Shown here in pieces: positions 46,489-64,000 of a DNA stretch of 64,000 nucleotides. Source of the DNA: a virus; the IMG/VR virus record IMGVR_UViG_3300037467_001303, positions 40,866-104,865 of that record. One strand, given 5' to 3'. The position numbers were made by a program, and so were the translations under genes. Each line of letters begins with the position of its first letter. Position 1 is the stretch's first letter. Under the pieces are notes generated by a model, which made no database searches, was not told the DNA's origin, and was given only the letters and a program-made list of their open reading frames with translations.

Positions 46489-48810
46489 ATGAGCTGCTCA
46501 TTCTCTGTCAACTTTTCCCAGCTGCCGGCCGCGCCGGCGCCGCCGCCGATCCCGGACCTGCCGGCCCTGCCGCCCCTGCCCGACCTGTCCTTGATCGAGC
46601 CGTTCGAGCCGCTCCCGGCGCCGACCGACCTGCCCGACGCGCCCACTGCGCCGACCCTGCCGGACTACCAGCTGCAGCCGATCCCCGATGCAAACTGGGG
46701 CACCGGCGATGCCCCCGGCGTCGTGGCGAATGTGATGACGAGCACTGGCCGACTGGCCTCGGTGAGCATGTCGGCCGCGATGACCTATCTGGTGTCGCTG
46801 GCGGACCTGGCCAACGGGTTCACGCCGATCACGGCGCCATTGCACCCCGGCACCGATGTCGACCTGCCGGACGCGGTCGAAGCACCAGCCGGGTTCGACC
46901 TGGCCCCGGCGTTCCCGCCGCTGCCCGAGGCCCCGGCAACCGCCACGCCGACCCCGTTCGTGATGCCCGAGGTGCCCGCCTACGACGCCGGCGAGCTGAC
47001 CCTGGCCGACCTGGCGCTGCCCGACCCGGCAACGATCCTGTTGCCGGCCGCCCCGGACCTGCTGCCGGTCTCGGCGCCGCCGCCGCCCGACTTCATCCTG
47101 CCACCCGCGCCGACGCTGGCCGAGCTGGTCATCCCCGACCCGCCGGTGCTCACCCTGCCGCTGTTCGAGGCCGAGCTGGGCGCGCGCCCGGACCTGCCGA
47201 CGGTCGCATTCGCCTACGATGAGGTGGCCTACCAGTCCCAGCTGCTCACCGAAATGACCTCGGCGCTGGCCGGCCTCATCATGGACGAGCACGCCACCGG
47301 CCTGCGCCCCGATGTCGAAGAGGCCATCTGGAGCCGCGCCGCCTCCCGCGAAGCCCGCCTGACCGCGCGCGCCACCGGCGAAGCGGCGCGCGTGCTGCAG
47401 GCGCGCGGGTTCGCCATGCCGGCCGCGACCCTGGACCGCATGGTGCAGCAGGCGCTGTCCGGCGGCCTGACCCGCGCCAGCGGCTTTGCCCGCGCCGTCG
47501 CCGTCGAGCGCGCCCAGCTGGCCCAGCAGAACCTGCGCTTCGCGCTGGAGAGCACGATCGCGCTGGAGTCGCGCCTGATCGACAAGCACAACGCCACCCA
47601 GGCCCGCGCGCTGGACGCGGCCAAGGCCATGCTGGCCCACGAGATCGCCATCTTCAACGCCCAGGTCAAACTGATGCAGGCCGACGTGGCCGCGTTCGCC
47701 ATGAAGGCCGAGGTGTTCAAGGTCCGGCTCACCAGCGCCCTCGCGCAAATCTCGGTGTTCCGCGCCCAGATCGAGGCCCAGATCGCGCGCGGCGAGGTCA
47801 ACGCCCAGAAAATCGCCATCTACCAGGCCCAGATCGGCGGCGTGCGCGTGATCGCCGACACCTACCGCAGCCAGGTCGAGGCGGCGCGCGAACTGACCGA
47901 CGCCAACAAGGCGCGCGCCGACCAGTACCAGGCCCGGATCTCGGCGTACCAGGCCGAAGTGACGGCCAAGCAGAGCGAGTACGAGGCCTTCGGCGGCGCC
48001 GTGCGCGCCCAGGTCGAACGCGCCCACATGTTCGAGAAGCAGGTGGCCAGCTACCGTTCCAAGGTCGGCGCGTTCGACGCCCTGGTGAAAGCCAAGGTCG
48101 GGGTGCTGGACCTGCAGCTCAAGCAGACCGGCGACTACCCGCTGGAGATGTTTCGCGCCAGGATCGACGCCTACCGCGGCGCCAGCGAAGCGACCGTCGA
48201 GCAGCTGCGCTCGTCCGCCAGCGTGTACGGCGCCAAGATCCGCGCCTATGTCGCGTCCGAGTCGGTCAAGACCGAGCTGGCCGACGCCAAGGTACGGGTG
48301 GCCCAGGCCAACGCCGAGCGGGCGCTGGCCGACGCGACTGCGCTGCTCGACGCCGGCCGCGCCAACCTGGCCAGCGCCGAAGCCTACGCCGCGACGGTCC
48401 AGAACAACGTGCGCACCGCCGGCCAGCTCGCAGGCCAGATCGCGGCGGCCGCCGTTGCCGCCCAGAGCGTGCACGCCTCGATCTCCGAGAGCGGCAGCAT
48501 GGGCGTGTCGAACAGCCACGGCGAATCGAGCAGCCACTCGGACAGCCAGGCCGCCGTCAACTCGACCAGCACCAGCAGCAGCCTCAACACCAGCTTCACG
48601 CAGATCTCGGGCAGCACCTCCAACAACGTGGTCTCCAACAGCTCCGGGCGCCACCGCAACAAGGGCACGAGCAAGTCCGAATCCGTCGCCTACAGCAACA
48701 CCACCGGCAATTCGATGACCTCGCACTTCACCAACTCGATCACGTCGAGCCTGTCCGACAACTTCTCGGAGTCGAGGGAGTGCATCGACCGCACCGTCCA
48801 CTCCGACTGA
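46489..48810 (+). CDS. Virion or ejection protein (Pro-rich, coiled-coil, Ser-rich), paralogue 1
   Basis: VEEAIWSRA...ARGFAMP; KAEVFKVRL; Ser-rich C-terminus. Confidence 0.8.
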   Translation: MSCSFSVNFSQLPAAPAPPPIPDLPALPPLPDLSLIEPFEPLPAPTDLPDAPTAPTLPDYQLQPIPDANWGTGDAPGVVANVMTSTGRLASVSMSAAMTYLVSLADLANGFTPITAPLHPGTDVDLPDAVEAPAGFDLAPAFPPLPEAPATATPTPFVMPEVPAYDAGELTLADLALPDPATILLPAAPDLLPVSAPPPPDFILPPAPTLAELVIPDPPVLTLPLFEAELGARPDLPTVAFAYDEVAYQSQLLTEMTSALAGLIMDEHATGLRPDVEEAIWSRAASREARLTARATGEAARVLQARGFAMPAATLDRMVQQALSGGLTRASGFARAVAVERAQLAQQNLRFALESTIALESRLIDKHNATQARALDAAKAMLAHEIAIFNAQVKLMQADVAAFAMKAEVFKVRLTSALAQISVFRAQIEAQIARGEVNAQKIAIYQAQIGGVRVIADTYRSQVEAARELTDANKARADQYQARISAYQAEVTAKQSEYEAFGGAVRAQVERAHMFEKQVASYRSKVGAFDALVKAKVGVLDLQLKQTGDYPLEMFRARIDAYRGASEATVEQLRSSASVYGAKIRAYVASESVKTELADAKVRVAQANAERALADATALLDAGRANLASAEAYAATVQNNVRTAGQLAGQIAAAAVAAQSVHASISESGSMGVSNSHGESSSHSDSQAAVNSTSTSSSLNTSFTQISGSTSNNVVSNSSGRHRNKGTSKSESVAYSNTTGNSMTSHFTNSITSSLSDNFSESRECIDRTVHSD

Positions 48811-48820
48811 AGGGCGCACC

Positions 48821-50953
48821 ATGACCAACGTTCCAGAACCGACCGAGATCAAGCTTGCGAGCGGGCTTGTCACCACCGTCCTGGGCGAGTCGCAGGCGCT
48901 GGCCAACCTGGCGCAGACCGGCGGCATCGCCGCGATCGAGGCGCTGGCCACGCTCGACATCGAGATCCCGCCGATCGTTCCGCCCGACATCGACATCCCG
49001 GCGATCGCCGTGGCGCCGTCCGCCGCACTGCCGCAGGAGCCGGCCCTGGCGCTGCAGATGCCGGAGCTGCCGCAGGCGCCGGACGCGCCGGCCGCCGCCA
49101 GCCTGGACGTGGGCACGCCGCCCGCCTACGACCTGGTGCCGCCGCTTCTCATCGACGTGCCGCTGCCCGACCCGTTCGATGCGCTGGTGCCCGACGCGCC
49201 GGTGCTCGACGACGTGCAGGCGCCGGTCGAACCGGATTTCACCCTGCCGGCCGTGCCCGACCTGGTGTCCCTGAACCTGCCCGACGCGCCCACCTACGAG
49301 GTGCCGACCTTCGCCGGCGAGGCGCCGACCGCGCCCATGGTGCCGGACCTGCAGTTCACCTGGAACGAAATCGAGTACCACAGCGAGCTGCTGGCCAGCG
49401 TCAACAACCGCCTGCTGACGTTCGTGCAGGGCGGGTTCTCGGCGCTGCCCGAGGAGGTCGAGCAGCGGATCTGGGACAAGGCCGTCGACGACGAGGTGGC
49501 CGCCACCTGGAGCGCGACCGACGCCGCAGCCCAGCAGGTCGCCGCGCGCGGTTTCAATTTGCCCGGCGGGGAACTGCTGCGCCTGGTGCAGGCGGCGCTG
49601 GACGCCGGCCTGAAACAGGACGTGCAGGCCAGCCGCGAGACCATGGTGGCGCAGGCCCGCATGCAGCAGGCCAATTTCGCCTTCGCGTTCTCGAACGCGA
49701 TGCAGCTGGAAACCCAGCTCATCAACCTGTTCAACCAGGTCCGGCAGCGCGCGCTCGACGCCGCGAAATACCGCGTCGAGTCAAGCATGCAGCTGTTCGA
49801 TGCGCGGGTGATGCTGTACCAGGCGGACGTGCAGGCCTTCGGCGCCAAGGCCGAGGTGTTCAAGGCCCGCCTGCAGGCGGTGCTGGCCCAGCTCGACGTG
49901 TACAAGGCCGAGCTGGAAGCGGTGAAGGCACGCGGCCAGCTCAACCTCCAGCTGGCCCAGCAGTATGCGGCCCAGGTCGACAGCCTGAAAGTGATCGCCG
50001 ACGTGTACCGCGCGCGCGTGTCCGCCGTCAGCCTGGCCGTGGCCAACAACAAGAACCGCACCGAACTGTATAAAAGCGCGATCGACGGCGCCGCCGCGCA
50101 GGCCAAGGGCGCCGCCCTGGCCGTGCAGGGCTACCTGGCCCAGGTACAGCAGGAATCCGGCAAGGCCGACCTGTTCGCCGCCCGCGTGGCCGGGTACGCC
50201 AGCCAGGTCGAGGCGTTCCGGGTACTGGCCGACGGCAAGCTGTCCGAAGCGGGCATGAATTTCCGCCAGCTGCAGCAGTTCCCGCTGGAACTCTACAAGA
50301 GCCAGATCGCGGCCGCGCAGGCCGCGACCCGCGCCGAGAGCACGCGCCTGAGCGCGACCGCCGAGCTGTTCAACAGCCGGGTCGACGCCTATGCGGCCCA
50401 GCAGCGCGTGATCAACAAGCAGGCCACCACCAAGGGCGAGGTCGAGAACCTGGAAACCCGTGTCTACGCCAGCCGCGCCCAGCTGGCCATCAATGCCGCC
50501 TCGATCACCCAGCGCCTGGAGCAGGCGCGCACCGATACCGCCCAGGCCTCGCTGCGCGCCGCGGCGCAGCTGTCGTCGCAGCTGGCCTCGGCCGCGATGA
50601 GTGCGCGCAACGTCTCGGCCTCGATGTCGGGCAGCGTCAGCAATTCGGGCAGCTACAGCGTCTCGAACACCACTGCCAAGTCGACCAGCAACAGCAGCTC
50701 GATCTCGGTCTCGAACGCGACCAACTTCTCGGCCGGGACCTCGGACACCCGCGGCGGCGTGTCCAGCTACAACACCAGCCAGACCTACAGCGACAACGAG
50801 ACCGTCAGCGAGTCGGTCAACCACTCCACCTCCGAAGTGGTCTCGCACTCGTCGATGTACGACAGCCGCGTCGACAACCGCAATACCCGCTCGTACGGCG
50901 TCAGCAAGCGCAACGAAGCGACCACGCAGGACATCTACAACCACAAAGCGTAA
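48821..50953 (+). CDS. Virion or ejection protein (Pro-rich, coiled-coil, Ser-rich), paralogue 2
   Basis: VEQRIWDKA...ARGFNLP; KAEVFKARL; Ser-rich C-terminus. Confidence 0.8.
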   Translation: MTNVPEPTEIKLASGLVTTVLGESQALANLAQTGGIAAIEALATLDIEIPPIVPPDIDIPAIAVAPSAALPQEPALALQMPELPQAPDAPAAASLDVGTPPAYDLVPPLLIDVPLPDPFDALVPDAPVLDDVQAPVEPDFTLPAVPDLVSLNLPDAPTYEVPTFAGEAPTAPMVPDLQFTWNEIEYHSELLASVNNRLLTFVQGGFSALPEEVEQRIWDKAVDDEVAATWSATDAAAQQVAARGFNLPGGELLRLVQAALDAGLKQDVQASRETMVAQARMQQANFAFAFSNAMQLETQLINLFNQVRQRALDAAKYRVESSMQLFDARVMLYQADVQAFGAKAEVFKARLQAVLAQLDVYKAELEAVKARGQLNLQLAQQYAAQVDSLKVIADVYRARVSAVSLAVANNKNRTELYKSAIDGAAAQAKGAALAVQGYLAQVQQESGKADLFAARVAGYASQVEAFRVLADGKLSEAGMNFRQLQQFPLELYKSQIAAAQAATRAESTRLSATAELFNSRVDAYAAQQRVINKQATTKGEVENLETRVYASRAQLAINAASITQRLEQARTDTAQASLRAAAQLSSQLASAAMSARNVSASMSGSVSNSGSYSVSNTTAKSTSNSSSISVSNATNFSAGTSDTRGGVSSYNTSQTYSDNETVSESVNHSTSEVVSHSSMYDSRVDNRNTRSYGVSKRNEATTQDIYNHKA

Positions 50954-50969
50954 CCCGAGGACCACGACC

Positions 50970-53882
50970 ATGCCGAATCCCGACGACCTGCTCGAACCCA
51001 CCAGCCAGCAGCCGAATTTGCGTCAGCGCATCGCGGACGCCGCGCCGCAGCAGCAGGCCCAGGCGCGTGCCGTGGCCGACCGCCTCAAGCCGCCCACGCT
51101 CACCGATGTCGTCCGCCCGGGCAACGTCAACCCGGCGCTGCGCGACGACCTGGCGAAGACTTCGCTGAACGCGCAGGCCGACGCGAAAGCCGTGCAGGCC
51201 CGCCTGAACGGCAACGCCGCCGCCCCGGCCGCCGAGCCGGCCGCCTCGCCGCTGCGCGAGCGCCTGCAGGCGCGCGCCAGCGCGGCCCCGAGCGCGGCCG
51301 ACCAGGCCCTGCGCCAGCGCATGGGAGGCGGTATCGCCCAGGCCGCCCAGCAGGCCGCTGGCGCGCCGCCGCAGCTGCCGGCCCCGGCCAGCCCGGCGCC
51401 CGCCGCTGCCGCGCCGTCGCCGGCCAGCATCCGCGTCGATGGCGCCGGCAATGCCGCCGCGCCCGGCGCGCCGCGCACCACCATGCCGGTGGCGCAGGGT
51501 CCGGCAGCGGTCCCGCCCAGCAGCTCGCGCGCGCTCGTGCCGGCCAGCACCCCGCGCCCCGGCGTCATGGTGCCGTCCGGCCCCGGCGCCACGCCGCCCA
51601 GCGCTTCGCGCGCGATGGTCCCTGCAGGTCCTGGCGCCACGCCCCCGGCCGCCGATCCGGCCGCCGTACCGAAGGCGCCGTACAGCAAGCCAGGCGCGCC
51701 GCCGGTGCGCCCTGGCGTCTCCGTCGTCAACGGCGCGGGTGACGCCACGGTGCCGAACCCGGGCCTGCGCGACCGCATCACCGTCAACGCCAACCAGGCG
51801 CAGGCCGACCTGAAAGCCGCCGCCGACCGCATGGCCGCGCACCCGACCAACGTCGGACCGCAAAACCCGAACGTGGCCAGCCTGCGCCAGAGCGTGGGCC
51901 TGCACCCGGTGCCGCCGGGCGCGGCCGGCGCCGCCGAACCGGGCGTGATCGGCAAGTACGCCGGCAAGATCCTCGGCTCGGGCGAAGACTGGGCCGCGCT
52001 GGGCAACAAGCTCAAGCCGGCCGGCATGAAACTGCTGAAAGCGACCGGCGCCCTGGCCATCGGCGACGGCGCCTACAACGCCTACGAGGGCATCCGCCAG
52101 GGCGACCTGGGCCGCGCCGCATGGGGTGTCGGTGACGCCATCGCCGGCGTGGCCAGCTTCACCCCGGCCAAGCCGATCGCCGCCGCCTACCTGGGCGGCC
52201 GCGCCGCCTACGAGATCGGCCACGCGGCCAGCGAGGCCTTCGGCAGCGGCAAGAAACCGGCCGCCCCGGCCGCCGGGCCTGCCGCCAAGCCCGCCGCCGC
52301 CCCGGCCGCGGCACCCGCCGCCAAGCCCGCCGCCGCCCCGGCCGAGAAGCCGGCCGCGAAACCGGCGGCCGCCGCTCCGGCCCCGGCCATGGCCCAGCCG
52401 CGCCCGGACTACAGCAGCATGGCTGCCGCCGCGCGCGACGAGGCCCTGGGCGCGATCGACAACGAGGAAGCGTCCGACCCGCGCGCCGCCTACTACCAGA
52501 CGGTCGACCACAACACCGGCACCACCACCTACGACACGCGCGACCGTGGCCAGATCGTGGTCAAGGATGGCGTGCCGCTCAGCGAGGACGACCAGAAGCG
52601 CGTCGACGCCTTCACCGCCCGCCAGCAGCAGCGCGACGGCATCCACGAGCGCTACCAGCAGATGCTGGCCCAGCTGCAGGGAGAAGAGGAAGCCGGCGGT
52701 CCGGTGGCCGAGGCCGCCCGCGCCAGCGCCGGCGGTGGCGGCAACGCCAATGTCGCCGCCTTCGTGCAGCAGTACGGCGAAGCGGCCAAGGCCGCCGGCG
52801 ACAAGCTCGGCGTCGACCCGAACCTGCTCCTGACCCAGTGGGGCCACGAGACGGGCTGGGGCAAGAGCGTGATCCCGGGCACCAACAACCTCGGCAACAT
52901 CAAGGCCGTCAAGGGCCAGGCCGGCGTGGCCGCGACCGACAACATGACCGGCTCGCGCGACCAGTACGCCCAGTACGCCAGCCCGCACGAGTTCGCCGAC
53001 CAGTACGTGAACCTGGTCAACAGCCGCTATCCGGGCGCCGTCGGCGCCGGCAGCGACATGGGCAAGTTCGCCACCGCCCTGAAGGCCGGCGGCTATGCCG
53101 AGGACCCGGCCTACGTCAACAAGCTGCAGGCCGCCTATAAGACCGTGCTCGGCGCGGCCGGCGGCGCCCCGGCGCAGGCCCCGGCGGCCGCCGGTCCGCT
53201 GCCCTACGCGCGCGACCCGCTGGCCGGCGCCATCCCGGTGATGGACATGGCCAACGGCCGCACCTCCGTCACCATGCCCGGCATGGGAGAAGTGCGCGAC
53301 GGCATCACGATGGACGCCTACAACGCCGCCCGCACCGCGCTGAAGAACAACCCGTCGCTGGCGCAGCGCATGACGATCACCGACCAGGGTCCGGCCGTCG
53401 ACGGCGTGCTGATGCCGCTGAATGTGTTGCTGGCAGGCGACGGTGCGATGGCGAAGTACGCGCGCAACGCCGAACAGGCCCAGCGCTTCGCCGCCAACCC
53501 GACCGCCGGCAAGCTGGCCGAGACCGCGCTGGCGGGCGAGTACGCCAGCCGCAACCAGGAGACCCAGGCCGGCGCCACCCGCTACACGGCCGACCAGCAC
53601 CTCGAAGCGGCGAAGGTCGGCGCCTCGGCCGGCAACAAGCGCTACATCGAAATGAAGGGTGGTGTCAACCCGAAGACCTACACCCCCGAACCCGATATGG
53701 TGTTCGACACGCAATCGGGGCAGTACGTGCAGCGCCCGGGTGCGGGCGCCGCGCCGCAGCAGGGACAGCCGCAGATCCCGCCGGCGGCGATCGACATGCT
53801 CAGGAAACAGCCGCAAACCGCAGCCCAATTCGACGCCCAGTTCGGCGCCGGCGCCTCCAAGCGCTACCTGCAAGGGAACTAA
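50970..53882 (+). CDS. Ejection protein with FlgJ/GH73 glucosaminidase domain
   Basis: GAGG RBS before MPNPDD; QWGHETGWG, NNLGNIK, GGYAEDPAYVNKL; Ala/Pro-rich linkers. Confidence 0.85.
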   Translation: MPNPDDLLEPTSQQPNLRQRIADAAPQQQAQARAVADRLKPPTLTDVVRPGNVNPALRDDLAKTSLNAQADAKAVQARLNGNAAAPAAEPAASPLRERLQARASAAPSAADQALRQRMGGGIAQAAQQAAGAPPQLPAPASPAPAAAAPSPASIRVDGAGNAAAPGAPRTTMPVAQGPAAVPPSSSRALVPASTPRPGVMVPSGPGATPPSASRAMVPAGPGATPPAADPAAVPKAPYSKPGAPPVRPGVSVVNGAGDATVPNPGLRDRITVNANQAQADLKAAADRMAAHPTNVGPQNPNVASLRQSVGLHPVPPGAAGAAEPGVIGKYAGKILGSGEDWAALGNKLKPAGMKLLKATGALAIGDGAYNAYEGIRQGDLGRAAWGVGDAIAGVASFTPAKPIAAAYLGGRAAYEIGHAASEAFGSGKKPAAPAAGPAAKPAAAPAAAPAAKPAAAPAEKPAAKPAAAAPAPAMAQPRPDYSSMAAAARDEALGAIDNEEASDPRAAYYQTVDHNTGTTTYDTRDRGQIVVKDGVPLSEDDQKRVDAFTARQQQRDGIHERYQQMLAQLQGEEEAGGPVAEAARASAGGGGNANVAAFVQQYGEAAKAAGDKLGVDPNLLLTQWGHETGWGKSVIPGTNNLGNIKAVKGQAGVAATDNMTGSRDQYAQYASPHEFADQYVNLVNSRYPGAVGAGSDMGKFATALKAGGYAEDPAYVNKLQAAYKTVLGAAGGAPAQAPAAAGPLPYARDPLAGAIPVMDMANGRTSVTMPGMGEVRDGITMDAYNAARTALKNNPSLAQRMTITDQGPAVDGVLMPLNVLLAGDGAMAKYARNAEQAQRFAANPTAGKLAETALAGEYASRNQETQAGATRYTADQHLEAAKVGASAGNKRYIEMKGGVNPKTYTPEPDMVFDTQSGQYVQRPGAGAAPQQGQPQIPPAAIDMLRKQPQTAAQFDAQFGAGASKRYLQGN

Positions 53883-53885
53883 GCC

Positions 53886-56800
53886 ATGTCCGACGATACC
53901 CAGCCGAACCCGTACGCCCAGTTTGTCGACAAGCCGGCCGATCCGGCCGCCCAACCGGCCAACCCGTACGCGCAGTTCGCCCAGCAGCCGGCCGGCGCCA
54001 ATCCGTATGCCCAGTATTCGTACGCGGGCGCGGACCAGCAGCCGGTCAAGCAGCGCGGCGCACTCGGCGAGATCGCCAACCAGCTCAAGGCCGGTTTCAT
54101 TTCCGACCTGCCGAAGATGGCCGGCCAGGCGCTGCAGTACGCCGTCGAGCCGGGCGACAAGCTGTACGACATCGGCAAGAGTATCGCGGACTACGGCCGT
54201 GCCCAGGCCCAGCGCCCGGACCTGCAGCCGCAGGAAAGCACCCACAACTTCGCCACCAACGCGCTGGCCTCCGGCGCGCGCATGATCCCGCAGTCGATCG
54301 TGCCCGCGATGGCGGTCGGCGCGGCGATCGCGCGGCCCACGTCGGCGCTGCCGATGGTGGCGCGGCTGGGCATCGGCTCGGTGGCCTCGTCGCTGCCGGC
54401 CGCCATGAGCCAGGGCCAGGAAACCCTGGACAAGGCCCATGAAAAGGGCGGCATCCCCGAAGACCAGGCGCGCGAAGCGGCGCGCATCACCGCGTTCGAG
54501 GAAGGCGCCGGCGAGTCGATCGGCACCTTCGCGCTGGGCAAGCTGTTCGGCATCGCCGGGCGCGCGCTCGGCAAGAGCCACGCCGGCACCGCCGCCGAGC
54601 AGGCCCTGGAAGGCGCGACCAACACCCAGGTCCTGAAACCCTGGCTGCGCCAGCTGCCCGAGACGATCGGCGTCGAGGTCGGCACCGAAATGGGCCAGAA
54701 CGCCTCGGAAGCCGAGACCGAGCGCCGCTACGGCATCGACGACCATTCGCCGTGGGACGCGGCCAAGGAAGCGATCGCCCCGACCGTCGGCATGACCCTG
54801 CTGCTGGCGCCGTTCGGCCTGGCCGGACACGGCATCGACGCCGGCCGCACCAAGCAACGCAACGACATCTTCCAGTCGCCGGACGCCGACCAGCAGCAGC
54901 GGACCCAGGTCGCCAACGAGATCGCCAGCCAGATTGGCGAGGTCGACAAGACCGCCGAGCGCAACTTCCGCGCCAACGTCGCGCGCGCGATCTCGGCCAA
55001 CGAGCCGCTGCCGATCGACGGCTCGCTGTTCGCCGACCCGTCCCAGCCGCGCCAGGCCCCGGCCACCCCGGCCGCAGGCAGCGCGCCCGCCAACCCGGAC
55101 GACCCGAGCGCAGGCGCCGCCGTCCCGGAGAACCCGCTGACGGCGGCCGCCGGCCGTTCGCCGCTGCGCGCGTTCCCGTTCCGCAACCAGGATCTGGCCC
55201 AGAAACAGGCCGATGCGCTGGCCGCCCGCGATGGCGTGCCGTACCAGGTGATCCCGCACCCGAAGCAGCAGGGCAAATTCATCGCCGTGCCGGTCGAGCA
55301 GTCGGGCGCGCAAGACGCCGCCGCCGCCGCCGCGCCGCTGGCCGAGGCCGCTGGCGTGGCCCCGCAGGACGGTGCAGCCCCGCCGGCCCCGGTCGGCCTG
55401 CAGCCGGGCGAGCCGGTGCAGGTGACGATCAATGGCGTGGACCAGTTCGAGAACGGCACCCAGCTGATCGACCTGTCCGACGATGGCCAGTGGGCGCGCG
55501 TGCAGGGGGCCGATGCCGCCGTGCCGGTCTCCAGCCTGACCCGGATCGACCCGGCGGCCGCCGCCGCGATCGACGCCGGCGCGCACCAGGCCGCCACCAG
55601 CGACCAGAACGACCGCAAGCCGCCGAGCGAAGCCCAGCAGCGCGCCGGCAACTACAAGAAGGGCGAGGCCGAGCTGCAGGGCATCCCCCTCATGGTCGAG
55701 AACCCGGTTGGCACCACCCGCGAGGGCACGGACCCGGACGGCGCGCCGTGGTCGACCACGATGTCGGACCACTACGGCTACATTCGCGGCACCAGGGGCG
55801 CCGACGGTGACGCGGTCGATACCTACATCGGCCCGAACCCGGCCAGCCACCACGTGTTCGTGATCGACCAGCTGGACCAGGACACCGGCGAATTCGACGA
55901 ACACAAGGTCATGCTCGGCTACAACAGCCCGGAGCAGGCGCAAAAAGCCTACGAGGCCCACTACACCCAGGGCTGGCAGGGCGGCGAGAACATCACCGCC
56001 ACCACCGTCGACGGCCTCAAGAAGTGGATCAAGGAAGGCGACACCACGGCGCCGTTCAACCCGGTCTATTTCGGCGGCGAGGCGCGCCCCAAGGAAGTTG
56101 CCGCACCGGCTGCGCCGGCGGCGAAGCCGCAGGGCCAGGCCGCCACCGGCCCGATCGAGATCCCGGGCAGCGTGACGCCGGAACAGAAGAAGGCCGCCGG
56201 CAACCAGGTCGCCGCTTCGCCCTACTTCATCATGAACGGGCGCACCTACGAGACCATCGACCGCAACAGCGGCAGCGGCACCGTGTGGGCCGCGCGCGCA
56301 ACGCTGCAGCCGGCGAAGCGAGGCGCCGGCGTGGGCGGCACCACCCAGTTCGATTTCGTCGAACATGACGGCCAGCTGTGGATGGCCGACAGCAAGGGAG
56401 ACAGGACGCGCCTGACGCCGGTGACGTTGACCGGCGCCCCGACCTGGGCCGGCGACGGCAAGCTCGACCCGCACGACGCGTATGTGCTCGAACGTTCCCT
56501 GGACGGCTACCACGAAGGCGTGACCGGCCGCGCGGCCGACATCCGCAAGTCGCTGCTCGCCTACCAGGCCGAGCTGCGTGGCGAACACCAGGGCGACAAG
56601 CTGATGCCGGACGACATTGTCTATGACGTGTCGGACACCCCGCGCGAATCGCAAAAGGTGGGCGCCAACGGCCCGATCACGGTCGTCGCCACCTCGCAAT
56701 CCACCGGCCAGCGTGGCCACGGCACCGGCCACACCGAGGAGGAAGCCGCCGCCAAGGCCCGCATGGGCCTGTGGACGAACCTGAACGAGCAGCGCAACAA

Positions 56801-59800
56801 GGCGGCGGCCGCGAAGCCGCAGGCCGAGGCCGCGCCGGCGCGCCCGGGCGTCCAGGCCGCCGAGCACAGCGAAATCATCGACGTGAAGGACTTCGTCGCC
56901 AAGTCGACCCCGGTCGGCAAGAACGACGCCGGCGAAGCGCTGTACGAGAGCGAGCGCGGGCGCTTCCGCCTGCGCAACGACCGCCCCGACCGTCCGCACG
57001 GCTACCCCGACTTCGGCGGCGACCTGTCCCCGAAGCGCAGCGACCAGTACAAGCGCTACCAGACCACGATCGAGCGCCAGCTGTCCAATGGCCAGGAGAT
57101 CCCGGCCGGCGTGCTGGAGCAGATCCGCGCCGACGAACGCCTCGACGATGGCGAGGCCGAAGACCTGCACGACATGGCCACCGGCGGCTTGAGGGGCGGG
57201 CCGGCGCAGAAGCTGTCGGCACAGCAGCTCCAATACAAGCTGCAGAACTACCGGAAGGACGGCCGCGACAAGGACGGCAACCAGGTCTGGCGCAAGTTCG
57301 ACGACGCCGGCGAGAGCGAGGTCGCGGTCGACAAGGACGGCCGCGTGGTGCGCGACCACGCCGTCACGCACACTTTCGACCTGGACGACAAGCGCAGTGT
57401 CGAAATGTCGGTCAACGGCCTGACCGGCCAGTGGTTCGCCACCGAGTACGACGCCAGGCACAACCAGATCAAGCGCGTGCTGCTGTCGGACGCCGACATG
57501 CAGCGCCGCGACCGCGAGAAGATGCTCGGCGAGAAGTTCGGCGCCGACAAGGTCGAGGAACTCGACCGCAAGGTTGCCCGCACCCCGGCCAAGGCCTGGG
57601 CCACGCGCCCGCACGCCCGCAAGGCGCCCGGCTTCAACCGCCAGGACTTCGAGAACGATGTCCGCGCGTATGACTGGGGCATCGTCGGCTCCAAGACGGA
57701 GCCGGCCAAGCTGGCCGCGCACAAGGCGCTGGGCAAGAAGCTGGCCGACCCGGGCAACTACGTGACCCCGGCCGAGCAGCGCGCCGAGCGGATCAAGAAG
57801 CTGGACGACGAGATCGCCAAGCGCAGCGCCGAGGTGGCGCAGATCGAGGCCGACAAGAAGGCGGCCGACGAGAAGAAGCAGGGCTGGCAGTACGTCACCA
57901 AGCTGAAGGTGGCGCGCGAGGCCCTGGCCAGCGCCAGGGAAACCCGCGACAGCCTGGCCGGCGCGCAGGCGCAGACCGACAAGGCCGCCGCCGAGCCGTC
58001 GACGGTCGAGAAGCCGTCCCTGCACGACCAGCTCGAAGCGCTGCTCGACGAGCAGGCGCACCACCCGGAGCGCAAGGATCGCAACACCGTAGCCGGCAAT
58101 CGCATCTTCTCGTTCAAGTTCCACACCTCGATCCCGGTCTCGCAGGAGGCCCTGGACCAGTTCGTCCCGCTCAAGGGTGACGCGCTGAAAGCGCGCACCG
58201 CCAAGGTCGAGAAACAGTGGGAAGAGGAGCGTGCCCGCCAGCAGGCCGAGAAGGACAACTTCCCGACCAGGGGTTTTGAACACGTCATCAAGCCGGAATC
58301 GTCCGACGTGCAGCTGCAGCTGGCGACCGCCAAGGGCTGGGGCTTTACGGAGAAGACGGTGCCGGTCCGCTATCCGGGCAGCATCGACACCGTGTTCCAC
58401 GACTACGAGCGCGGTCTGGAATACGACAATGGCAAGCCCAGCAGCACCAAGGATTCGGTGAAATTCGAGGTGCGGGTGGCGCAAGGTCCGAACGGCAACT
58501 GGACCTACTCGACCGCGTACAACGTGGGGAACAGTGGCGGCGCGAGCAGCGCACCGAGCATCTGGGACCCGCAGTATGCCACGCGCGAACAGGCCATCAC
58601 CGCCGGCAAGGACGAGCTGCTCGACCGCATGAAAGACCGCCCGGACGTGGTCAAGAAGATCGAGCGGGAGTACGCCAAGCTGGGCATCAGCGGCGAAGCG
58701 AAGGCGATCGCGCCCACCGGCGACTGGCCGTGGAAGGATTCGCCGTTCGCGGCGCGCATCGACGCCGCGCTGGCCAAGCTGGCCGCGCACGCCCCGGACT
58801 ACCTGCGGGCGTACCGCAGCGGCTTCGTGCAGGACGCCAACGCCAACCGCCTGACCGAGGAATCGGTGGCGTTCCGCGAGAAGAAGGTCGACCAGATCGT
58901 CGGCGAGAAGACCGGCAAGGCAACTGCCGTGCCGTTCACGCCGCTCGACGCGGCCGGCATGCAGAAGGTCAGCGACGTGTCCGACGCCCTGCCCAAGGAA
59001 ATCGTCGACGCCGCGATCGCCAGGTGGAACCCGGTCGCCGAGCAGCTGGCGCAACTGGGCTACCAGCACGGCGAGGTGTTTACCAACGCGCCGCAGGCCG
59101 CGCAGGCCCTGGAACGCCAGCTGAAGGACATCGCCAACGCCCTGATGAGCCTGGCGCCGCGCCGCTGGCTGGTCGAGCGCGACAAGAAGCTGGACCCGCC
59201 GAAGACGGAAAAGGAAGCCAAGCGCCGCGCCGCCACCCTGCGCCACCTGGAGCGCGCCGAGGACTACGCGACCGAAGTGCTGGGCATCAAGACCCGCGAT
59301 TACCCGGCCGTCGACACCGCGAACCGGATCACGCTGGCGGCCGGTATCCGCAAGAAGGCCGGCGAACTGGAGTCGAGCGACGAGGAGATCGCGGCATCGG
59401 CCGCCCCGGCCATGCAGCCGAAGGGCACCTGGCAGGAATCCGCCTTCGCCAAGCGCATCGAGACCATGATCGGGCAGCTGCGCGGCGTCGGCAACGACGA
59501 CATGGCGCGCGTGGTCGAGGACGACATGAAGACGGCCGCCGGGCGCGGCCTGCTCGACGAGGCCGAGGTCAAGCGCAAGGAAGAACTCACGCGCAACATC
59601 CTCGCCAAGGTGGCGCCAAAGCCCGGCCAGTCGATGGTCGTGACGAAGGGCAAGGACGGCCACCCGCAGGTGGATTTCTGGCGGATCGAGTTCAAGGGCG
59701 TCGTCCACGCCGATGTCGACCTGCCGGCGCCGCTGGTGGCGCGCGTGCAGAACGTGCTGCGCACCCGCCCGGACGCCTACCACCTGAGCCGCCCTTACCG

Positions 59801-62800
59801 CCAGAACGATACCCGCATCCACCTCGGCCAGGAAGACGACCGCAACGCCAACAGCCAGGCCTCGATGCTGCTGCTGGACAACGGCACCGTGGAAATGCTG
59901 GGCGACGATTCCCACCACTGGGGTTCGACCATGACCCAGGCCAGCGCGGTCAAGGCGCTGAACAACTGGCTGAACAGCCTGCCGGAGCTGGACCACAACC
60001 CGAGGAATCTGCCGAACGGCATGTGGGGCACGGTCGAGAACCCGCTGAAATTCGTCTCCGGCATGAGCCGGCCGGGCGACTACAGCAAGTTGTTCGAAGG
60101 CCACCGCAGCGTCGGCGTGATGGTCTCCGAGCTGTCCAACAGGGATGTCGACAAGGCCCTGGCCGAGCAGATGGCCAAGTCGAACGGCTACCTGTTCGTC
60201 GATTCGGGCGCGTTCCCGATCTATAAACTGAACGAGCGCGCGTTCGCCAAGGCGCTGGAAAAGGGTTTTGAGGATTTTAAAGGCGAACAGATCCTGACGT
60301 TCGACCAGATCCTGGAGCGCTACGAGCGCCTGGACCGGGCGATTTCGGAAGCCTCCGATGGCGAAGCCAACGACCGCGCCTTCTTCGTGATGCCCGACAT
60401 CGTCGGCCGGCAGGAGGAATCGCTGCGCCTGGTCGGCGAGTATGCCCGCACGATCAAGCAGTACGGCGACCGCGCCATCATCCCGCTGCAGTCGGGCAAG
60501 TTGAGCCTGACCCAGGCCTACGAGTCGGCCATGCTGGAGCTGGCGCGCGACCCGGACCTGGATGACGGCCCGGTCATCGGCATCCCGAGCGCGGCCGAAG
60601 CGGTCTCGAACGAGGAACTGACGGCCCTGCTGAAAAAGCACGGCGACCGCATCGCCGGCGTGCACGTGCTGGGGGCATACTCCGACCTGCGCCTGGCGCC
60701 GCGCCTGAAAGCGATCCGTGACGCCGGCTACGAGGGCAACGTCTCGGCCGACGCCAACCGCCTGCGCGCGCTGATGTATGGCGACCGCACCCGCGGCCAG
60801 GCCTGGGAGGAACTGTTCAACCAGTCGCAGCCCGAGGGCGGGCGCGTCGACACGACCGAGCAGCGCAAGGAAGAGGCCAGCAAGCTGGTGCTCGCCCGCT
60901 GGGGTTTTACCCAGGACACCGTCCCGGCCAACGGCGAGTTCGGCGACTGGGAAGTGGCGGTTCGCAAGGACAACGGCCGCTTCGGCAAGGAGCAGCTCGC
61001 ATTCGAGATCAACGTCGCACAGGCGCCGAACGGCAAGTGGGCGTATTCGGCCAGCTATAGCCAAGGCGGCACGACCGGCAACAAGATCGGCATGGGTACG
61101 CCCGGCGCCGCGCCGAAACTGGCCTCGCCGGCCTACGCCACCCGGATGCAGGCGATCGAGGCGGGTTCCGAGGCGATCCGCACCGACATGCTGAAAACCC
61201 ACGGCGACATCACCCGCCTGGCCGCGCCGCTGCACAACGCCGTCAAGCGACTCAAGGAGGCCGAGCAGGAAGCGGCCAAGCCGGCGAAGGCCGACAGGCG
61301 CGTCGTGAAAGGCTTTGCGACCATGGAGCAGGAGGCCGCGCGCCTCAAGCAGCTGCAGGAGATCGTGCGCTACCAAGCCATGCCGACCGCCGGCCTGACC
61401 TCCGAGCAGAGGAAGACCATCACGCGCGGCATCAGCGGCGCGCAGAAGGCGCTGGGCCAGCTGCCGGCCGGCCGCCTGACGCTGGCTGGCGCACGCGACC
61501 TGCGCGGAGTCGCCGATCCCTTGAACAGCAAGCTGTTCAAGGACTGGGTCGAGAACATCCGCATCCGCATCGAGGAAAAGACCCCGGCCGACCTGCACGC
61601 CGTCTATGCCAACTACCGCCACGACCGCAACGGCGAGCAGCCGCTGACGAAGGAATTTGTCGCGCAGATGCTGGCCGAGCAGGTCGGCAAGACGGAGCGC
61701 CCGCTGGCCGAACCGGGCTGGCTCGGCACGCTGAACGACGACCAGGTCGAGGACGTGCGGGACGCCATGCAGGACCTGCGCGAGCAATCGAACACGTTGC
61801 TGCGCGAGTACGAACGGCTGGCGCCGGTGGATGGCATCGCCCCGCAGGGCGGCGCCTACGTCGACGCGCTGGCGCGCGGGCAGGCCCTGGCCACCCTGCT
61901 CCAGCGCGTGGCGCAAGGCGACACCGTGAGCGAGGCCAAGATCCGCGCCAAGCTGTTCGGCAGCCAGATCCTGGGCAACGCCGCCCACACGGACAACCCG
62001 ATCCATCGCAGCGCCGAGCCGCTCAACCGCTTCATCGACGAGGCCGGCGCGAAGATCATCGAGGCCAGCGAGATCGACGCCCAGATCAAGGCGAGAACGG
62101 ATGCAGCGAAAACGAAACCCGCGCCGTTCACCGAAGCGCCGGTCCGCAACTACACGGTGGAGCGCGCCGCAGCCAACAGCGTGAAGCTGCGCCCATTGCC
62201 GGGACAGAGTTTCAGCCAGGAGGACATCGCGGCGCTGCAGTCCTGGTTGAAGGAGAACGGCTGGAGTGCGTTCTCGGAGAAGAACTACGTGCATGGCATC
62301 GGACCGACCGGCGCCGCATGGAGCGACGTGCCGGACGCAGACCGCGTGACCAAAAAGGACGCCGCGGCACAGGCCGCCAGCGACAAACGCGATGCCGAGC
62401 GCAAGGCTGCCGAGGAAAGCCGGGCGGCCGATCTCGCGCGCCTCGGATCGGCCGCTTGGATCGACCAGGTCTTCGGCACCGATAGCATGAACGGCTTCAA
62501 CAAGGCGGCGTTGGCGCGCTACCTGGATGGTGAGGCGGCGCAGTTCGCAGGCTTGATGAACCACAAGTGGGAAGCCGGGCTGCGCACGCTCGGCTTGCAG
62601 GAAGCCGATCTCGCAAACGGACGGGTCGACGACATCTTGCAGAAGGTGAAGCGTGCTTACGACCAGGCGAAAACCGCCCCGCGACTCAACCCGGAAACCA
62701 AGCCCGCACCGCGCCAGATCACCGACGACGAGCTGTTCGACGCCGATTTCCAGGACGCACTCGGCCACCTGGGCGACGTGCTGGGCGACGTGTTCGGCGG

Positions 62801-64000
62801 CAAGCTGAACATCACCGGCCAGAAGTACACCGCAGGTGATTTGCTGCCGGCGCTGTCCAGGGTCATCGAAATGCTGGTGAAGAAGGGCGTGCGCTCGTTC
62901 TCGAAGGCCGTCGCCACCGCCGCGCGCGGCATGCGCGCCAACGACAAGACCGCGCCGTTTGTCGACCAGATCAGCCCGCGCCAGTGGAAGGCCGCCTACA
63001 ACGCGATCGCCGAAATGCACGAGGGCACCGACACCGAGGCGGCCGTCAACGCCGTCTCGAACGACGAGGTGGCGCGCCTGGTGGCGCCGCCGGCGCCGGT
63101 GACGGCCGAGGGCATCGACATGCTCGGCAAGCGGATCGGCGAGATCGAGGCACGCCTGTCGACGCTCAGGACGCTGCGCGAGCGGGCCGAATCGACCGGC
63201 AACGCCTGGGTCTACGACGAGAAGATCGCCGAGCACGAGAAGGAGTTGCAGGAATTCCGTGACGCCCGCGAGCGCGCCATGCTGGCGCAGGGCAAGGCCG
63301 AACCGTCCATCGAGCAGCGCGTCGACGACCTGCCGAACGACAAGGTCTACGCCTTGCACGAGGCACTGAACCTGTATACCGGCCGCTCGTACACCATCGA
63401 GAAGATGCGTGAGCGCATCAAGGCGCAGCCGGCCGACGAGATCCAGCGCGGATTCGACGCGCTGAAAGCAGCGCAGGACTGGCGCGAATCCATTGGCCGC
63501 GCCGGCGCGCCGTACGGCCTGGTGCTGGTCGACTACCACCCCGGCATCATGGGGGCCAATCTCGCCCTGCGCGACGACCCGCAGGCGCCGTTCGCGCAGG
63601 TCAACCTCATGGGGGACGCCAAGCACTACGAGGTGCGCTATCGTGGGATCAGCGCCTGGGACGCGCGCAACAGCGATCTGGACGCTATGCTCAAGGAAGC
63701 GGCCGAGGTGCTGCGCGAGTTCGAGGACCCGTCCGTCAGCAAGGAGCAGCGCGAGGCGAACGACCTGGCCCGCTACAAGGAAAACCAGCGCCGCGGCGAA
63801 GCGGAGCGCAAGGAGCGGGGCGAGCGCCTGGCGAACGACAAAGCCGGCAAGGCCGGCACGTCGGCCAAGGAACAGCCGAAGAAACCCGGCAAGGTGTATG
63901 GACAGGCCAAGTTGCGCCTGGACTACGGTGTGCCGGCGATCGACGGCTACACGGAAACGAAGGAATTCCCGCACGGTCCGCCCGGCGACATCCCGAGCGG
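53886..64000 (+). CDS. Giant polyvalent virion protein (>3370 aa, runs off the window) with inorganic-pyrophosphatase-like and TGT-like domains
   Basis: Absent from the ORF track because it has no stop in the window. MSDDTQPNPYAQF...; frame open in every segment I translated (not checked codon by codon throughout). GNYKKG...ENP.G..R.G...W...M..HYGYI.GT.GADGD.VD...FDEHKVMLGY at about 55570-56060. Confidence 0.88.
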   Translation, partial: MSDDTQPNPYAQFVDKPADPAAQPANPYAQFAQQPAGANPYAQYSYAGADQQPVKQRGALGEIANQLKAGFISDLPKMAGQALQYAVEPGDKLYDIGKSIADYGRAQAQRPDLQPQESTHNFATNALASGARMIPQSIVPAMAVGAAIARPTSALPMVARLGIGSVASSLPAAMSQGQETLDKAHEKGGIPEDQAREAARITAFEEGAGESIGTFALGKLFGIAGRALGKSHAGTAAEQALEGATNTQVLKPWLRQLPETIGVEVGTEMGQNASEAETERRYGIDDHSPWDAAKEAIAPTVGMTLLLAPFGLAGHGIDAGRTKQRNDIFQSPDADQQQRTQVANEIASQIGEVDKTAERNFRANVARAISANEPLPIDGSLFADPSQPRQAPATPAAGSAPANPDDPSAGAAVPENPLTAAAGRSPLRAFPFRNQDLAQKQADALAARDGVPYQVIPHPKQQGKFIAVPVEQSGAQDAAAAAAPLAEAAGVAPQDGAAPPAPVGLQPGEPVQVTINGVDQFENGTQLIDLSDDGQWARVQGADAAVPVSSLTRIDPAAAAAIDAGAHQAATSDQNDRKPPSEAQQRAGNYKKGEAELQGIPLMVENPVGTTREGTDPDGAPWSTTMSDHYGYIRGTRGADGDAVDTYIGPNPASHHVFVIDQLDQDTGEFDEHKVMLGYNSPEQAQKAYEAHYTQGWQGGENITATTVDGLKKWIKEGDTTAPFNPVYFGGEARPKEVAAPAAPAAKPQGQAATGPIEIPGSVTPEQKKAAGNQVAASPYFIMNGRTYETIDRNSGSGTVWAARATLQPAKRGAGVGGTTQFDFVEHDGQLWMADSKGDRTRLTPVTLTGAPTWAGDGKLDPHDAYVLERSLDGYHEGVTGRAADIRKSLLAYQAELRGEHQGDKLMPDDIVYDVSDTPRESQKVGANGPITVVATSQSTGQRGHGTGHTEEEAAAKARMGLWTNLNEQRNKAAAAKPQAEAAPARPGVQAAEHSEIIDVKDFVAKSTPVGKNDAGEALYESERGRFRLRNDRPDRPHGYPDFGGDLSPKRSDQYKRYQTTIERQLSNGQEIPAGVLEQIRADERLDDGEAEDLHDMATGGLRGGPAQKLSAQQLQYKLQNYRKDGRDKDGNQVWRKFDDAGESEVAVDKDGRVVRDHAVTHTFDLDDKRSVEMSVNGLTGQWFATEYDARHNQIKRVLLSDADMQRRDREKMLGEKFGADKVEELDRKVARTPAKAWATRPHARKAPGFNRQDFENDVRAYDWGIVGSKTEPAKLAAHKALGKKLADPGNYVTPAEQRAERIKKLDDEIAKRSAEVAQIEADKKAADEKKQGWQYVTKLKVAREALASARETRDSLAGAQAQTDKAAAEPSTVEKPSLHDQLEALLDEQAHHPERKDRNTVAGNRIFSFKFHTSIPVSQEALDQFVPLKGDALKARTAKVEKQWEEERARQQAEKDNFPTRGFEHVIKPESSDVQLQLATAKGWGFTEKTVPVRYPGSIDTVFHDYERGLEYDNGKPSSTKDSVKFEVRVAQGPNGNWTYSTAYNVGNSGGASSAPSIWDPQYATREQAITAGKDELLDRMKDRPDVVKKIEREYAKLGISGEAKAIAPTGDWPWKDSPFAARIDAALAKLAAHAPDYLRAYRSGFVQDANANRLTEESVAFREKKVDQIVGEKTGKATAVPFTPLDAAGMQKVSDVSDALPKEIVDAAIARWNPVAEQLAQLGYQHGEVFTNAPQAAQALERQLKDIANALMSLAPRRWLVERDKKLDPPKTEKEAKRRAATLRHLERAEDYATEVLGIKTRDYPAVDTANRITLAAGIRKKAGELESSDEEIAASAAPAMQPKGTWQESAFAKRIETMIGQLRGVGNDDMARVVEDDMKTAAGRGLLDEAEVKRKEELTRNILAKVAPKPGQSMVVTKGKDGHPQVDFWRIEFKGVVHADVDLPAPLVARVQNVLRTRPDAYHLSRPYRQNDTRIHLGQEDDRNANSQASMLLLDNGTVEMLGDDSHHWGSTMTQASAVKALNNWLNSLPELDHNPRNLPNGMWGTVENPLKFVSGMSRPGDYSKLFEGHRSVGVMVSELSNRDVDKALAEQMAKSNGYLFVDSGAFPIYKLNERAFAKALEKGFEDFKGEQILTFDQILERYERLDRAISEASDGEANDRAFFVMPDIVGRQEESLRLVGEYARTIKQYGDRAIIPLQSGKLSLTQAYESAMLELARDPDLDDGPVIGIPSAAEAVSNEELTALLKKHGDRIAGVHVLGAYSDLRLAPRLKAIRDAGYEGNVSADANRLRALMYGDRTRGQAWEELFNQSQPEGGRVDTTEQRKEEASKLVLARWGFTQDTVPANGEFGDWEVAVRKDNGRFGKEQLAFEINVAQAPNGKWAYSASYSQGGTTGNKIGMGTPGAAPKLASPAYATRMQAIEAGSEAIRTDMLKTHGDITRLAAPLHNAVKRLKEAEQEAAKPAKADRRVVKGFATMEQEAARLKQLQEIVRYQAMPTAGLTSEQRKTITRGISGAQKALGQLPAGRLTLAGARDLRGVADPLNSKLFKDWVENIRIRIEEKTPADLHAVYANYRHDRNGEQPLTKEFVAQMLAEQVGKTERPLAEPGWLGTLNDDQVEDVRDAMQDLREQSNTLLREYERLAPVDGIAPQGGAYVDALARGQALATLLQRVAQGDTVSEAKIRAKLFGSQILGNAAHTDNPIHRSAEPLNRFIDEAGAKIIEASEIDAQIKARTDAAKTKPAPFTEAPVRNYTVERAAANSVKLRPLPGQSFSQEDIAALQSWLKENGWSAFSEKNYVHGIGPTGAAWSDVPDADRVTKKDAAAQAASDKRDAERKAAEESRAADLARLGSAAWIDQVFGTDSMNGFNKAALARYLDGEAAQFAGLMNHKWEAGLRTLGLQEADLANGRVDDILQKVKRAYDQAKTAPRLNPETKPAPRQITDDELFDADFQDALGHLGDVLGDVFGGKLNITGQKYTAGDLLPALSRVIEMLVKKGVRSFSKAVATAARGMRANDKTAPFVDQISPRQWKAAYNAIAEMHEGTDTEAAVNAVSNDEVARLVAPPAPVTAEGIDMLGKRIGEIEARLSTLRTLRERAESTGNAWVYDEKIAEHEKELQEFRDARERAMLAQGKAEPSIEQRVDDLPNDKVYALHEALNLYTGRSYTIEKMRERIKAQPADEIQRGFDALKAAQDWRESIGRAGAPYGLVLVDYHPGIMGANLALRDDPQAPFAQVNLMGDAKHYEVRYRGISAWDARNSDLDAMLKEAAEVLREFEDPSVSKEQREANDLARYKENQRRGEAERKERGERLANDKAGKAGTSAKEQPKKPGKVYGQAKLRLDYGVPAIDGYTETKEFPHGPPGDIPS

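Follow-up and report, generated by a model that had tools for sequence, protein, structure and literature searches.

A predicted DpdA-like transglycosylase domain within a giant polyvalent protein of a virus

The window, i.e., the whole 64,000-nucleotide stretch of DNA analysed here, extends from position 40866 to 104865 of a 104,865-bp IMG/VR virus contig (IMGVR_UViG_3300037467_001303) rated 100% complete. Its subject is a domain resembling the DNA-guanine transglycosylase DpdA and the tRNA-guanine transglycosylases (TGTs), embedded in a giant protein. Contig bp 98899–104174 are repeated at contig bp 1–5276 with 99.92% identity over 5,276 bp; given this terminal repeat, the genome is circularly permuted or terminally redundant, with a length of ~98.9 kb. 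The open reading frame (ORF) of the giant protein runs off the window end and, joined across the contig ends, totals ~7,199 residues. A 7,235-residue protein in a public protein library is 97% identical to it. A second copy of the DpdA-like domain, at contig bp 1970–2812, is 100% identical to the window copy. The giant gene, the domain, and its motifs are laid out as follows; residue numbers such as D67 and D132 are positions within the 281-residue domain.

53886–63998, plus strand: giant polyvalent protein, N-terminal 3,371 residues (ORF open at the window end; remainder at contig bp 1–17452)
60003–60845, plus strand: DpdA-like domain, a predicted TGT-superfamily (β/α)8 barrel, giant-protein residues 2040–2320, structured core ~60042–60821 (AlphaFold2 model, structural search, hhalign)
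60201–60215, plus strand: DSGAF motif after β3, with D67, the predicted general acid/base (DpdA Asp95, TGT Asp102), and F71, the predicted base-stacking gate (DpdA Phe99)
60393–60413, plus strand: PDIVGRQ motif after β4, with D132, the predicted base-edge-binding Asp (DpdA Asp130, TGT Asp156)
60483–60497, plus strand: PLQSG motif after β5, with Q163, the predicted base-recognition residue (DpdA His181, TGT Gln203, Cap10 Lys154)
60573, plus strand: VIGIPS motif of β6
60660–60674, plus strand: VHVLG motif at the end of β7, with the invariant or nearly invariant H221, L223, and G224
60741–60767, plus strand: VSADANRLR motif at the end of β8, with D250, the predicted covalent nucleophile (DpdA Asp256, TGT Asp280)

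Modification of DNA with 7-deazaguanine is a phage anti-restriction strategy, recognised through the proteins DpdA1 to DpdA4, which are usually accompanied by a preQ0 synthesis cluster. The original prediction, made from the letters of the window, had picked out six TGT-like motifs, and they lie in one open plus-strand frame at bp 60045–60785: the D of DSGAF at 60201, MPDIVG at 60390, IIPLQ at 60477, VIGIPS at 60573, VHVLG at 60660, and VSADAN at 60741. The set is more than a chance assembly, as the catalytic positions are nearly invariant among 223 aligned relatives. D67 is found in 221 of 221 sequences, and the F71 position is F in 199 and Y in 19. In the β4 motif, the Pro is kept in 222/223 and D132 in 223/223. 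The Q163 position is more variable (195 Q, 21 P, and 7 H). H221 and G224 are each present in 223/223, L223 in 222/223, D250 in 220/221, and R255 in 194/221. The near-invariance of D67, D132, H221, G224, and D250 argues for a working active site. The sequence alignment places the three Asp residues typical of the TGT superfamily: in D-S-G-x-[FY] after β3, after β4, and at the nucleophile position after β8.

The roles proposed for these residues follow those of characterised enzymes. In Salmonella DpdA (PMC10164549), acid/base catalysis falls to Asp95, gating to Phe99, base recognition to Asp130 and His181, and base stacking to Leu236, with Asp256 serving as nucleophile. The active site of Cap10 follows this pattern with D-S, D, K, and H/D, including an H226/D248 pair (bioRxiv 2025.04.06.647259). 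By analogy with that pair, H221 is likely the hydrogen-bond partner of the nucleophile. There is no cysteine in the 281-residue domain or in the following ~130 residues, so that a structural Zn site (CxCxxC...H) is lacking, as the motif reading had also concluded.

An AlphaFold2 model built from a 40-sequence alignment has a predicted local distance difference test score (pLDDT) of 92.9 and a predicted template modelling score (pTM) of 0.90, and displays eight β-α units, i.e., a (β/α)8 barrel. The strands comprise residues 15–18, 37–40, 64–67, 126–129, 158–161, 189–195, 217–223, and 246–251, and the domain stops right after α8. Each motif sits at or just past the C-terminal end of its strand, β3 to β8, and the spacing reminiscent of a triosephosphate isomerase (TIM) barrel that had been read from the letters thus holds in the model.

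The model was compared with 48,161 PDB representatives by structural search (VIA-align). ArcTGT was the best match (1iq8; Z 15.0, root-mean-square deviation 3.4 Å, 224 aligned residues), with Z. mobilis TGT at rank 3 (3unt; Z 13.8), Cap10 at rank 4 (9ntn; Z 13.5), DpdA of Salmonella Montevideo at rank 6 (7ui4; Z 12.8, 218 aligned residues), and QTRT2 at rank 16 (6fv5; Z 11.4). Five TGT-superfamily representatives are thus within the top 16 chains, which indicates a TGT-family fold, by a narrow margin over other TIM barrels. Foldseek, one of the checks that had been proposed, likewise returned many TGT entries with E ~1e-5; they are mixed with psicose epimerases, which are the top two matches. 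By itself, the structural match is suggestive rather than decisive.

Sequence profiles provide a second line of evidence and point to the phage enzymes. Comparison by hhalign of the 223-sequence family alignment with a ~200-sequence alignment of DpdA1, the phage 9g type, gave a probability of 92.9% and E 3.6e-7; smaller alignments compared with phage 9g DpdA gave 87–89%. With relaxed extension, the alignment covers 214 columns and all six motifs are collinear with those of 9g DpdA, as follows (family, then 9g DpdA).

β3: FVDSGAF, FLDSGAF (DSGAF identical)
β4: PDVVGDQ, LDGIGDP
β5: PLQxG, PCFHAGE
β6: GIPS, VGAST
β7: VHxLG, VHGFG
β8: SADAN, SCDSSS

This is moderate, profile-level evidence of homology to a validated phage DpdA, and the nearest relatives of the domain appear to be the phage DpdA DNA-guanine transglycosylases. 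In both proteins, a (β/α)8 barrel bears the six motifs in identical order, and neither has a CxCxxC Zn motif; the Zn site is therefore not required of phage DNA transglycosylases. They differ in other respects. Identity is below 20%, and the similarity is undetected by HMMER and BLAST. The β4 motif is LD..GDP in 9g and PD..GDQ here, and the β5 residue is His in 9g and Gln here. The 9g DpdA is a free 317-residue enzyme with FolE, QueD, QueE, and QueC encoded beside dpdA, whereas the present domain is one part of the ~7,199-residue protein and none of the four genes accompanies it. The mapping onto Zymomonas TGT residues given in the original prediction is indirect, by way of the 9g DpdA alignment and the fold matches; a direct hhalign comparison with a single E. 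coli Tgt sequence is not significant (2.5% probability, only the DSGGF motif aligning).

Other DpdA groups were also compared. The C-terminal half of the domain resembles DpdA4/DUF6610 (PF20314; Halovirus HVTV-1 gp69) in having HLLG and VS-x-D-x-N, and VSIDGNA of HVTV-1 aligns with the VSADAN motif. Profile comparison supports this weakly (40% probability), and the window domain has no PF20314 match. DpdA4 itself is confined to archaeal viruses, where it is linked to genes for preQ1 synthesis. Two stand-alone family members match PF20314 below threshold (23 and 12.5 bits). Among 10 stand-alone members and 40 alignment rows searched against Pfam, none gave a match above threshold; there was one DUF6610 match at E 0.0026. 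Identity with DpdA3 was considered and rejected, as the family profile gave no match in the DpdA3 phages phiST and CP220. PF14350 ‘Beta_protein’, suggested by an ESM Atlas cluster name, was also rejected, having no match in the genome. In an ESM Atlas comparison, 22 of the 30 closest named clusters belong to a set whose best cluster carries the Pfam DpdA family PF23859 (in 17% of its members); we treat this leaning toward Pfam DpdA as a lead.

A genetic link to deazaguanine chemistry is found in another virus. A 42%-GC viral contig, 55% complete, encodes a 261-residue stand-alone family member (L077:8022–8807), which matches the family profile with 99.9% probability (E 4e-33) and the window domain by BLASTP with E 5e-13. 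In the region L077:5874–10552, the gene directly follows QueD-QueC-FolE-QueE, with a DNA methylase ~0.9 kb downstream; a DNA polymerase lies upstream. No TGT, DpdA1, or other transglycosylase candidate was found in the record besides the family member. The simplest reading is that the family member is the DpdA of that phage. This member appears to represent a DpdA subgroup absent from the deposited phage genomes, in which tblastn found no match to it. The idea that this member is an outgroup bridging the family to other DpdAs was not borne out: FastTree nests it, on a long branch and with weak support, inside a clade rich in stand-alone members.

Several results weigh against an active, DNA-acting transglycosylase. 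The structural search gives class II aldolases Z-scores of 14.1 and 13.1, many other barrels follow close behind, and the Foldseek TM-scores are only ~0.49–0.5. The hhalign probability is below 95%, and its confident core extends from β3 to β5 only. The domain, as a single sequence or as a 40-sequence profile, matches nothing in Pfam (E<=1), NCBIfam, PHROGs, or PDB sequences; that is, there is no HMMER-level match to TGT PF01702, DpdA PF23859, DUF6610 PF20314, any NCBIfam model, or any PDB sequence. The domain is without the 128-residue Ins8 and the CxCx2Cx22H Zn site of bacterial DpdA. The genes that usually signal deazaguanine modification are also missing: FolE, QueD, QueE/radical-SAM, and QueC are absent from the complete genome, which extends to all 98.9 kb the absence of folE and queCDE first remarked for the window, and among related viral records QueC is above cut-off in 1 of 79 and in 0 of the 39 that are at least 90% complete. 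Linkage to these four genes is thus not seen in the window phage. A ‘singleton DpdA’ group without synthesis genes does exist, with a role that the literature leaves unresolved (PMC6884629).

Two of these points can be qualified. PF01702 and PF23859 match nothing anywhere in the genome, which thus has no TGT gene (PF01702), nor any of 40 family members; a search with PF23859 of 50 records, including that of 9g, was also empty throughout. The curated models miss 9g DpdA too, and the negative result with PF23859 is uninformative for phage DpdAs. As for synthesis genes, 9g DpdA on its own is reported to draw on the preQ0 pool of its E. coli host and to insert the base, as dPreQ0, into plasmid DNA (PMC6884629), which makes use of a host pool by the window domain plausible.

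The fold results bear on whether the domain is a generic TIM barrel with unrelated chemistry, e.g., an aldolase-like or sugar-phosphate reaction. Class II aldolases scoring like TGT-family members, psicose epimerases heading the Foldseek list, and the silence of the curated hidden Markov models would all fit. We nevertheless consider it very improbable in the face of the five TGT-superfamily representatives among the top 16 chains, the DSGAF identical to that of 9g DpdA with six collinear motifs, and the family member in a QueDCE/FolE operon. In addition, there is no cysteine, and the single invariant His aligns with the His of 9g VHGFG and need not be a metal ligand. We conclude that the domain is very probably an active transglycosylase of the TGT/DpdA type, apparently intact.

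Which nucleic acid such an enzyme would act on is a separate matter. TGT, ArcTGT, and QTRT1/2 provide the best overall structural matches and have the same catalytic layout at the C-terminal strand ends. The tRNA enzymes ArcTGT (Z 15.0) and TGT (Z 13.8) are the top structural matches, as would be expected if the substrate were host tRNA, with exchange of G, preQ1, or Q retuning host translation early in infection. The window domain differs in lacking the Zn subdomain, the C-terminal tRNA-binding domains, and a Pfam TGT match; it has no Cys and ends after α8, and its sequence similarity is to DNA-acting phage DpdAs, not to E. coli Tgt. A tRNA substrate therefore seems improbable to us. The fourth-best structural match, Cap10, raises a further possibility, namely counter-defence: the domain might handle protein-linked 7-deazaguanine, intercepting or reversing the deazaguanylation signalling of type IV cyclic-oligonucleotide-based anti-phage signalling systems (CBASS). 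The active site of Cap10 (Z 13.5) retains a matching Asp/Ser, Asp, and His/Asp arrangement (bioRxiv 2025.04.06.647259). Against this role stand the absence of any sequence-level link to Cap10, the fact that the family is anchored by an operon for free-base synthesis with no CD-NTase or Cap9 partner, and the rarity of type IV CBASS relative to the spread of the family. We give this role only a slight chance. DNA is the substrate that we favour. The Salmonella Montevideo DpdA (7ui4) of the Dpd restriction-modification system shares with the window domain the fold and equivalents of Asp95, Phe99, Asp130, Leu236, and Asp256. Its Pfam family, PF23859, does not match the window domain. Bacterial DpdA needs a DpdB motor. 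No DpdB (ParB-like ATPase) partner was found here, which leaves a superfamily 2 (SF2) helicase within the giant protein as the sole candidate motor.

The remaining domains of the giant protein are as follows.

55629–56033, plus strand, giant-protein residues 582–716: InPase, a marker domain of phage polyvalent proteins (Pfam PF18823, E 2.9e-55)
58320–58664, plus strand, giant-protein residues 1479–1593: repeated ~115-residue domain, function not assigned, copy 1 (BLASTP between copies)
60885–61226, plus strand, giant-protein residues 2334–2447: repeated ~115-residue domain, copy 2, directly after the DpdA-like domain (BLASTP between copies)
Giant-protein residues ~3460–3740: N6-methylase, NPPF at 3641
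Giant-protein residues ~4340–4940: SF2 helicase, GAGKT at 4366 and DEAH at 4536
Giant-protein residues 6149–6271: ART-PolyVal
Giant-protein residues 6321–6495: LPD39

The C-terminal part of the giant protein matches phrog_10089 ‘DarB-like antirestriction’ (E=0). Its methylase-helicase module is 37–41% identical over ~1,600 residues to proteins annotated as DarB-like from Erwinia PEp14 and Pavtok, Ochrobactrum POI1126, Vibrio VvAW1, and others; the records that match include phages of Burkholderia and Ralstonia as well. Several unrelated effector domains and marker domains are thus carried on one chain, as in polyvalent proteins of the DarB-like kind, and a TGT/DpdA-like domain within a giant protein, as originally proposed, agrees with the barrel fold, the structural ranks, the hhalign match to 9g DpdA, and the conserved catalytic positions. 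The protein resembles P1 DarB and the DarB-like polyvalent virion proteins in its methylase-helicase module and in the concept of sending an enzyme that modifies DNA along with the DNA itself (PMC5512222). It differs in chemistry: DarB methylates, whereas base replacement is proposed here.

The two copies of the ~115-residue repeat are 38% identical (BLASTP E 4e-23), have no Pfam match, and are seen only in the closest relatives (P0003 and P0006). A conserved cassette flanking the DpdA-like domain was considered and set aside, as the repeat is confined to close relatives and a single copy adjoins the domain.

Two further observations concern the giant gene itself. At window bp ~63310–63852 (contig bp 104175–104717), an in-frame insertion of 531 bp (177 codons) is found only in the window’s copy of the gene, such that the protein would have ~7,199 or ~7,376 residues. 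This difference between the contig ends may reflect either variation within the population or an effect of the assembly. Opposite the giant gene, on the minus strand, is an antisense ORF of 4,357 codons at window bp 50901–63974. It looks like a shadow ORF rather than a gene, because the GC content is 67–72% and every family match is on the plus strand.

Upstream of the giant gene, the same-strand order is: major head protein, head-closure protein Hc3, virion structural proteins, two paralogues of 710–773 residues, and a glucosaminidase protein of ~1,000 residues, which is the immediate neighbour.

50601–53882, plus strand: large protein with a glucosaminidase (peptidoglycan-cutting) domain (Pfam PF01832, E 6e-20; phrog_3513; true start likely downstream of 50953)

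The glucosaminidase protein is probably an internal or ejection protein. The adjacent paralogues just upstream of it, at window bp 46489–48810 and 48821–50953, both match phrog_10969 (E ~1e-80). The major head protein (window bp 36762–37706) shares 56% identity with hypothetical proteins from the 431E45.1 group of Vibrio crassostreae phages, and Streptomyces phages also match. The head protein and the methylase-helicase module (Erwinia, Ochrobactrum, Burkholderia, Ralstonia) match different phages, and by these similarities the genome looks mosaic. The giant gene thus has the late/packaging-gene location characteristic of polyvalent proteins. Phage polyvalent proteins are predicted to be packaged and delivered with the DNA (Iyer et al. 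2017, PMC5512222), and by homology and gene position the same is predicted for the giant protein. The analogy to DarB drawn in the original prediction gains from the presence of a DarB-like methylase-helicase on the same polypeptide and from the position of the gene within the structural block.

The domain family is large. When 1.84 billion representatives were searched exhaustively with phmmer, 308 proteins matched at E<=1e-3, 111 of them at E<=1e-10. By these sequence matches, the family comprises at least 308 clusters at 50% identity and has no annotation in Pfam, NCBIfam, or PHROGs. Among the best 150 of the 308, 75 are at least 1,000 residues long and 45 at least 3,000, and 54 are shorter than 450. 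Within the 75 large representatives, a homologous methylase is present in 32, almost always C-terminal to the DpdA-like domain, InPase in 22, and an ART domain in 18. In IMG/VR there are 79 loci with the DpdA-like domain, 52 of them in ORFs of more than 1,000 residues. A tblastn search of 50,697 deposited phage genomes, DarB-like isolates included, with four different family queries gave no match, and a profile search of genome contigs with a closer family alignment found no relative.

Plasmids carry the family as well. Between 42 and 48 plasmid records match; they include Pseudomonas megaplasmids, Shewanella records, and ‘LPD1 domain’ polyvalent proteins of Cupriavidus. In the three plasmid contexts examined, the gene adjoins those of a TraI relaxase, an SprT-like protein, and a nuclease in one, follows a PRTRC cluster in another, and is near an orphan cytosine methylase in the third. 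The contexts with the relaxase and with the cytosine methylase are compatible with protection of DNA entering a new cell. On the Cupriavidus basilensis plasmid pRK1-3 (L169:5785–7533), a 582-residue protein has an N-terminal DpdA-like domain fused to DUF6884 (residues 436–541); its gene is near a TraI relaxase, an SprT-like protein, and a thermonuclease.

Based on these observations, we propose the following mechanism. A guanine in double-stranded DNA would be flipped into the mouth of the barrel, where Asp132 and Gln163 would read its Watson–Crick edge and Phe71 and Leu223 would stack on it. Asp250 would attack C1′, forming a covalent enzyme–DNA intermediate, as Asp67 protonates the leaving guanine. 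A free 7-deazaguanine would then resolve the intermediate and be left in the DNA. As the phage has no synthesis genes, the incoming base would most probably be host-made preQ0. The DpdB motor may have a substitute in the SF2 helicase of the giant protein. The role would be to shield the virus’s own DNA from restriction, the modification being written in cis around entry, alongside the DarB-like methylase. We propose this role on two grounds: the polypeptide also contains a DarB-like N6-adenine methylase together with an SF2 helicase, and its gene is in the virion block. We assign the full reading, base exchange on the element’s own DNA around entry, a probability of roughly 0.5. The analysis shows the fold, the superfamily membership, the conserved catalytic residues, the domain architecture of the protein, and the spread of the family; what we infer is that DNA is the substrate, which base comes in, that the protein is packaged in the virion, and when it acts.

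The retained catalytic residues would also serve a different outcome, the removal of bases from host nucleic acid. Guanine or 7-deazaguanines (dPreQ0, dADG) might be excised from host DNA, damaging the chromosome or erasing the self-mark of a Dpd-type restriction system. The nucleophile and acid/base pair could support hydrolysis of the covalent intermediate, the phage encodes no supply of replacement base, and polyvalent proteins contain many host-directed effectors (PMC5512222). The nearest relatives, however, insert bases, one member lies within a preQ0 synthesis operon, and fusion with a protective DNA methylase better fits modification of the element’s own DNA; a glycosylase role is, in our estimate, quite unlikely.

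The timing proposed for own-DNA modification likewise has a competitor, in which the same enzyme acts late on the same DNA: replicated phage DNA would be modified before or during packaging, and injection would be irrelevant to the domain. Known phage DpdAs all act post-replication in the infected cell (PMC10516641), and the location of the gene in the late structural block would make the giant protein present during DNA packaging. Modification before packaging would need only a free stand-alone enzyme, however, and the family is repeatedly fused with DarB-type methylases in polyvalent proteins. The conjugative plasmid members, one of them near a relaxase gene, fit DNA arriving in a new cell. 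We regard late action as unlikely, though to be taken seriously.

Returning to modification around entry, we tentatively suggest, as a rather doubtful generalisation, that phages and conjugative plasmids share a so far unrecognised defence, a ‘base swap on arrival’. A DpdA-like enzyme would travel with the DNA within a polyvalent protein, or be expressed from plasmid genes close to the relaxase, and would exchange guanines of the incoming DNA for a 7-deazaguanine. The queuosine-precursor pool of the recipient would supply this base with no element-borne synthesis genes, and a helicase in the same protein would replace DpdB.

No paper was found describing a DpdA/TGT-type fold in polyvalent proteins, in keeping with what the original prediction had stated. 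The founding polyvalent-protein paper makes no mention of TGT, queuine, deazaguanine, or a TIM barrel, and a jumbo-phage survey makes no mention of TGT. What appears to be new is a further DpdA-like subfamily, fused into proteins predicted to travel with DNA. The family is almost always uncoupled from synthesis genes and mostly fused into giant polyvalent proteins with DarB-type methylases, and it is also found on conjugative plasmids. The domain offers a compact, 260-residue, zinc-free candidate scaffold for a DNA transglycosylase. If it is active as proposed, base replacement would join the known chemistry of DNA-delivered proteins, the working of the ‘singleton’ DpdAs could be explained, and host queuosine-precursor metabolism would be predicted to control susceptibility to such elements.

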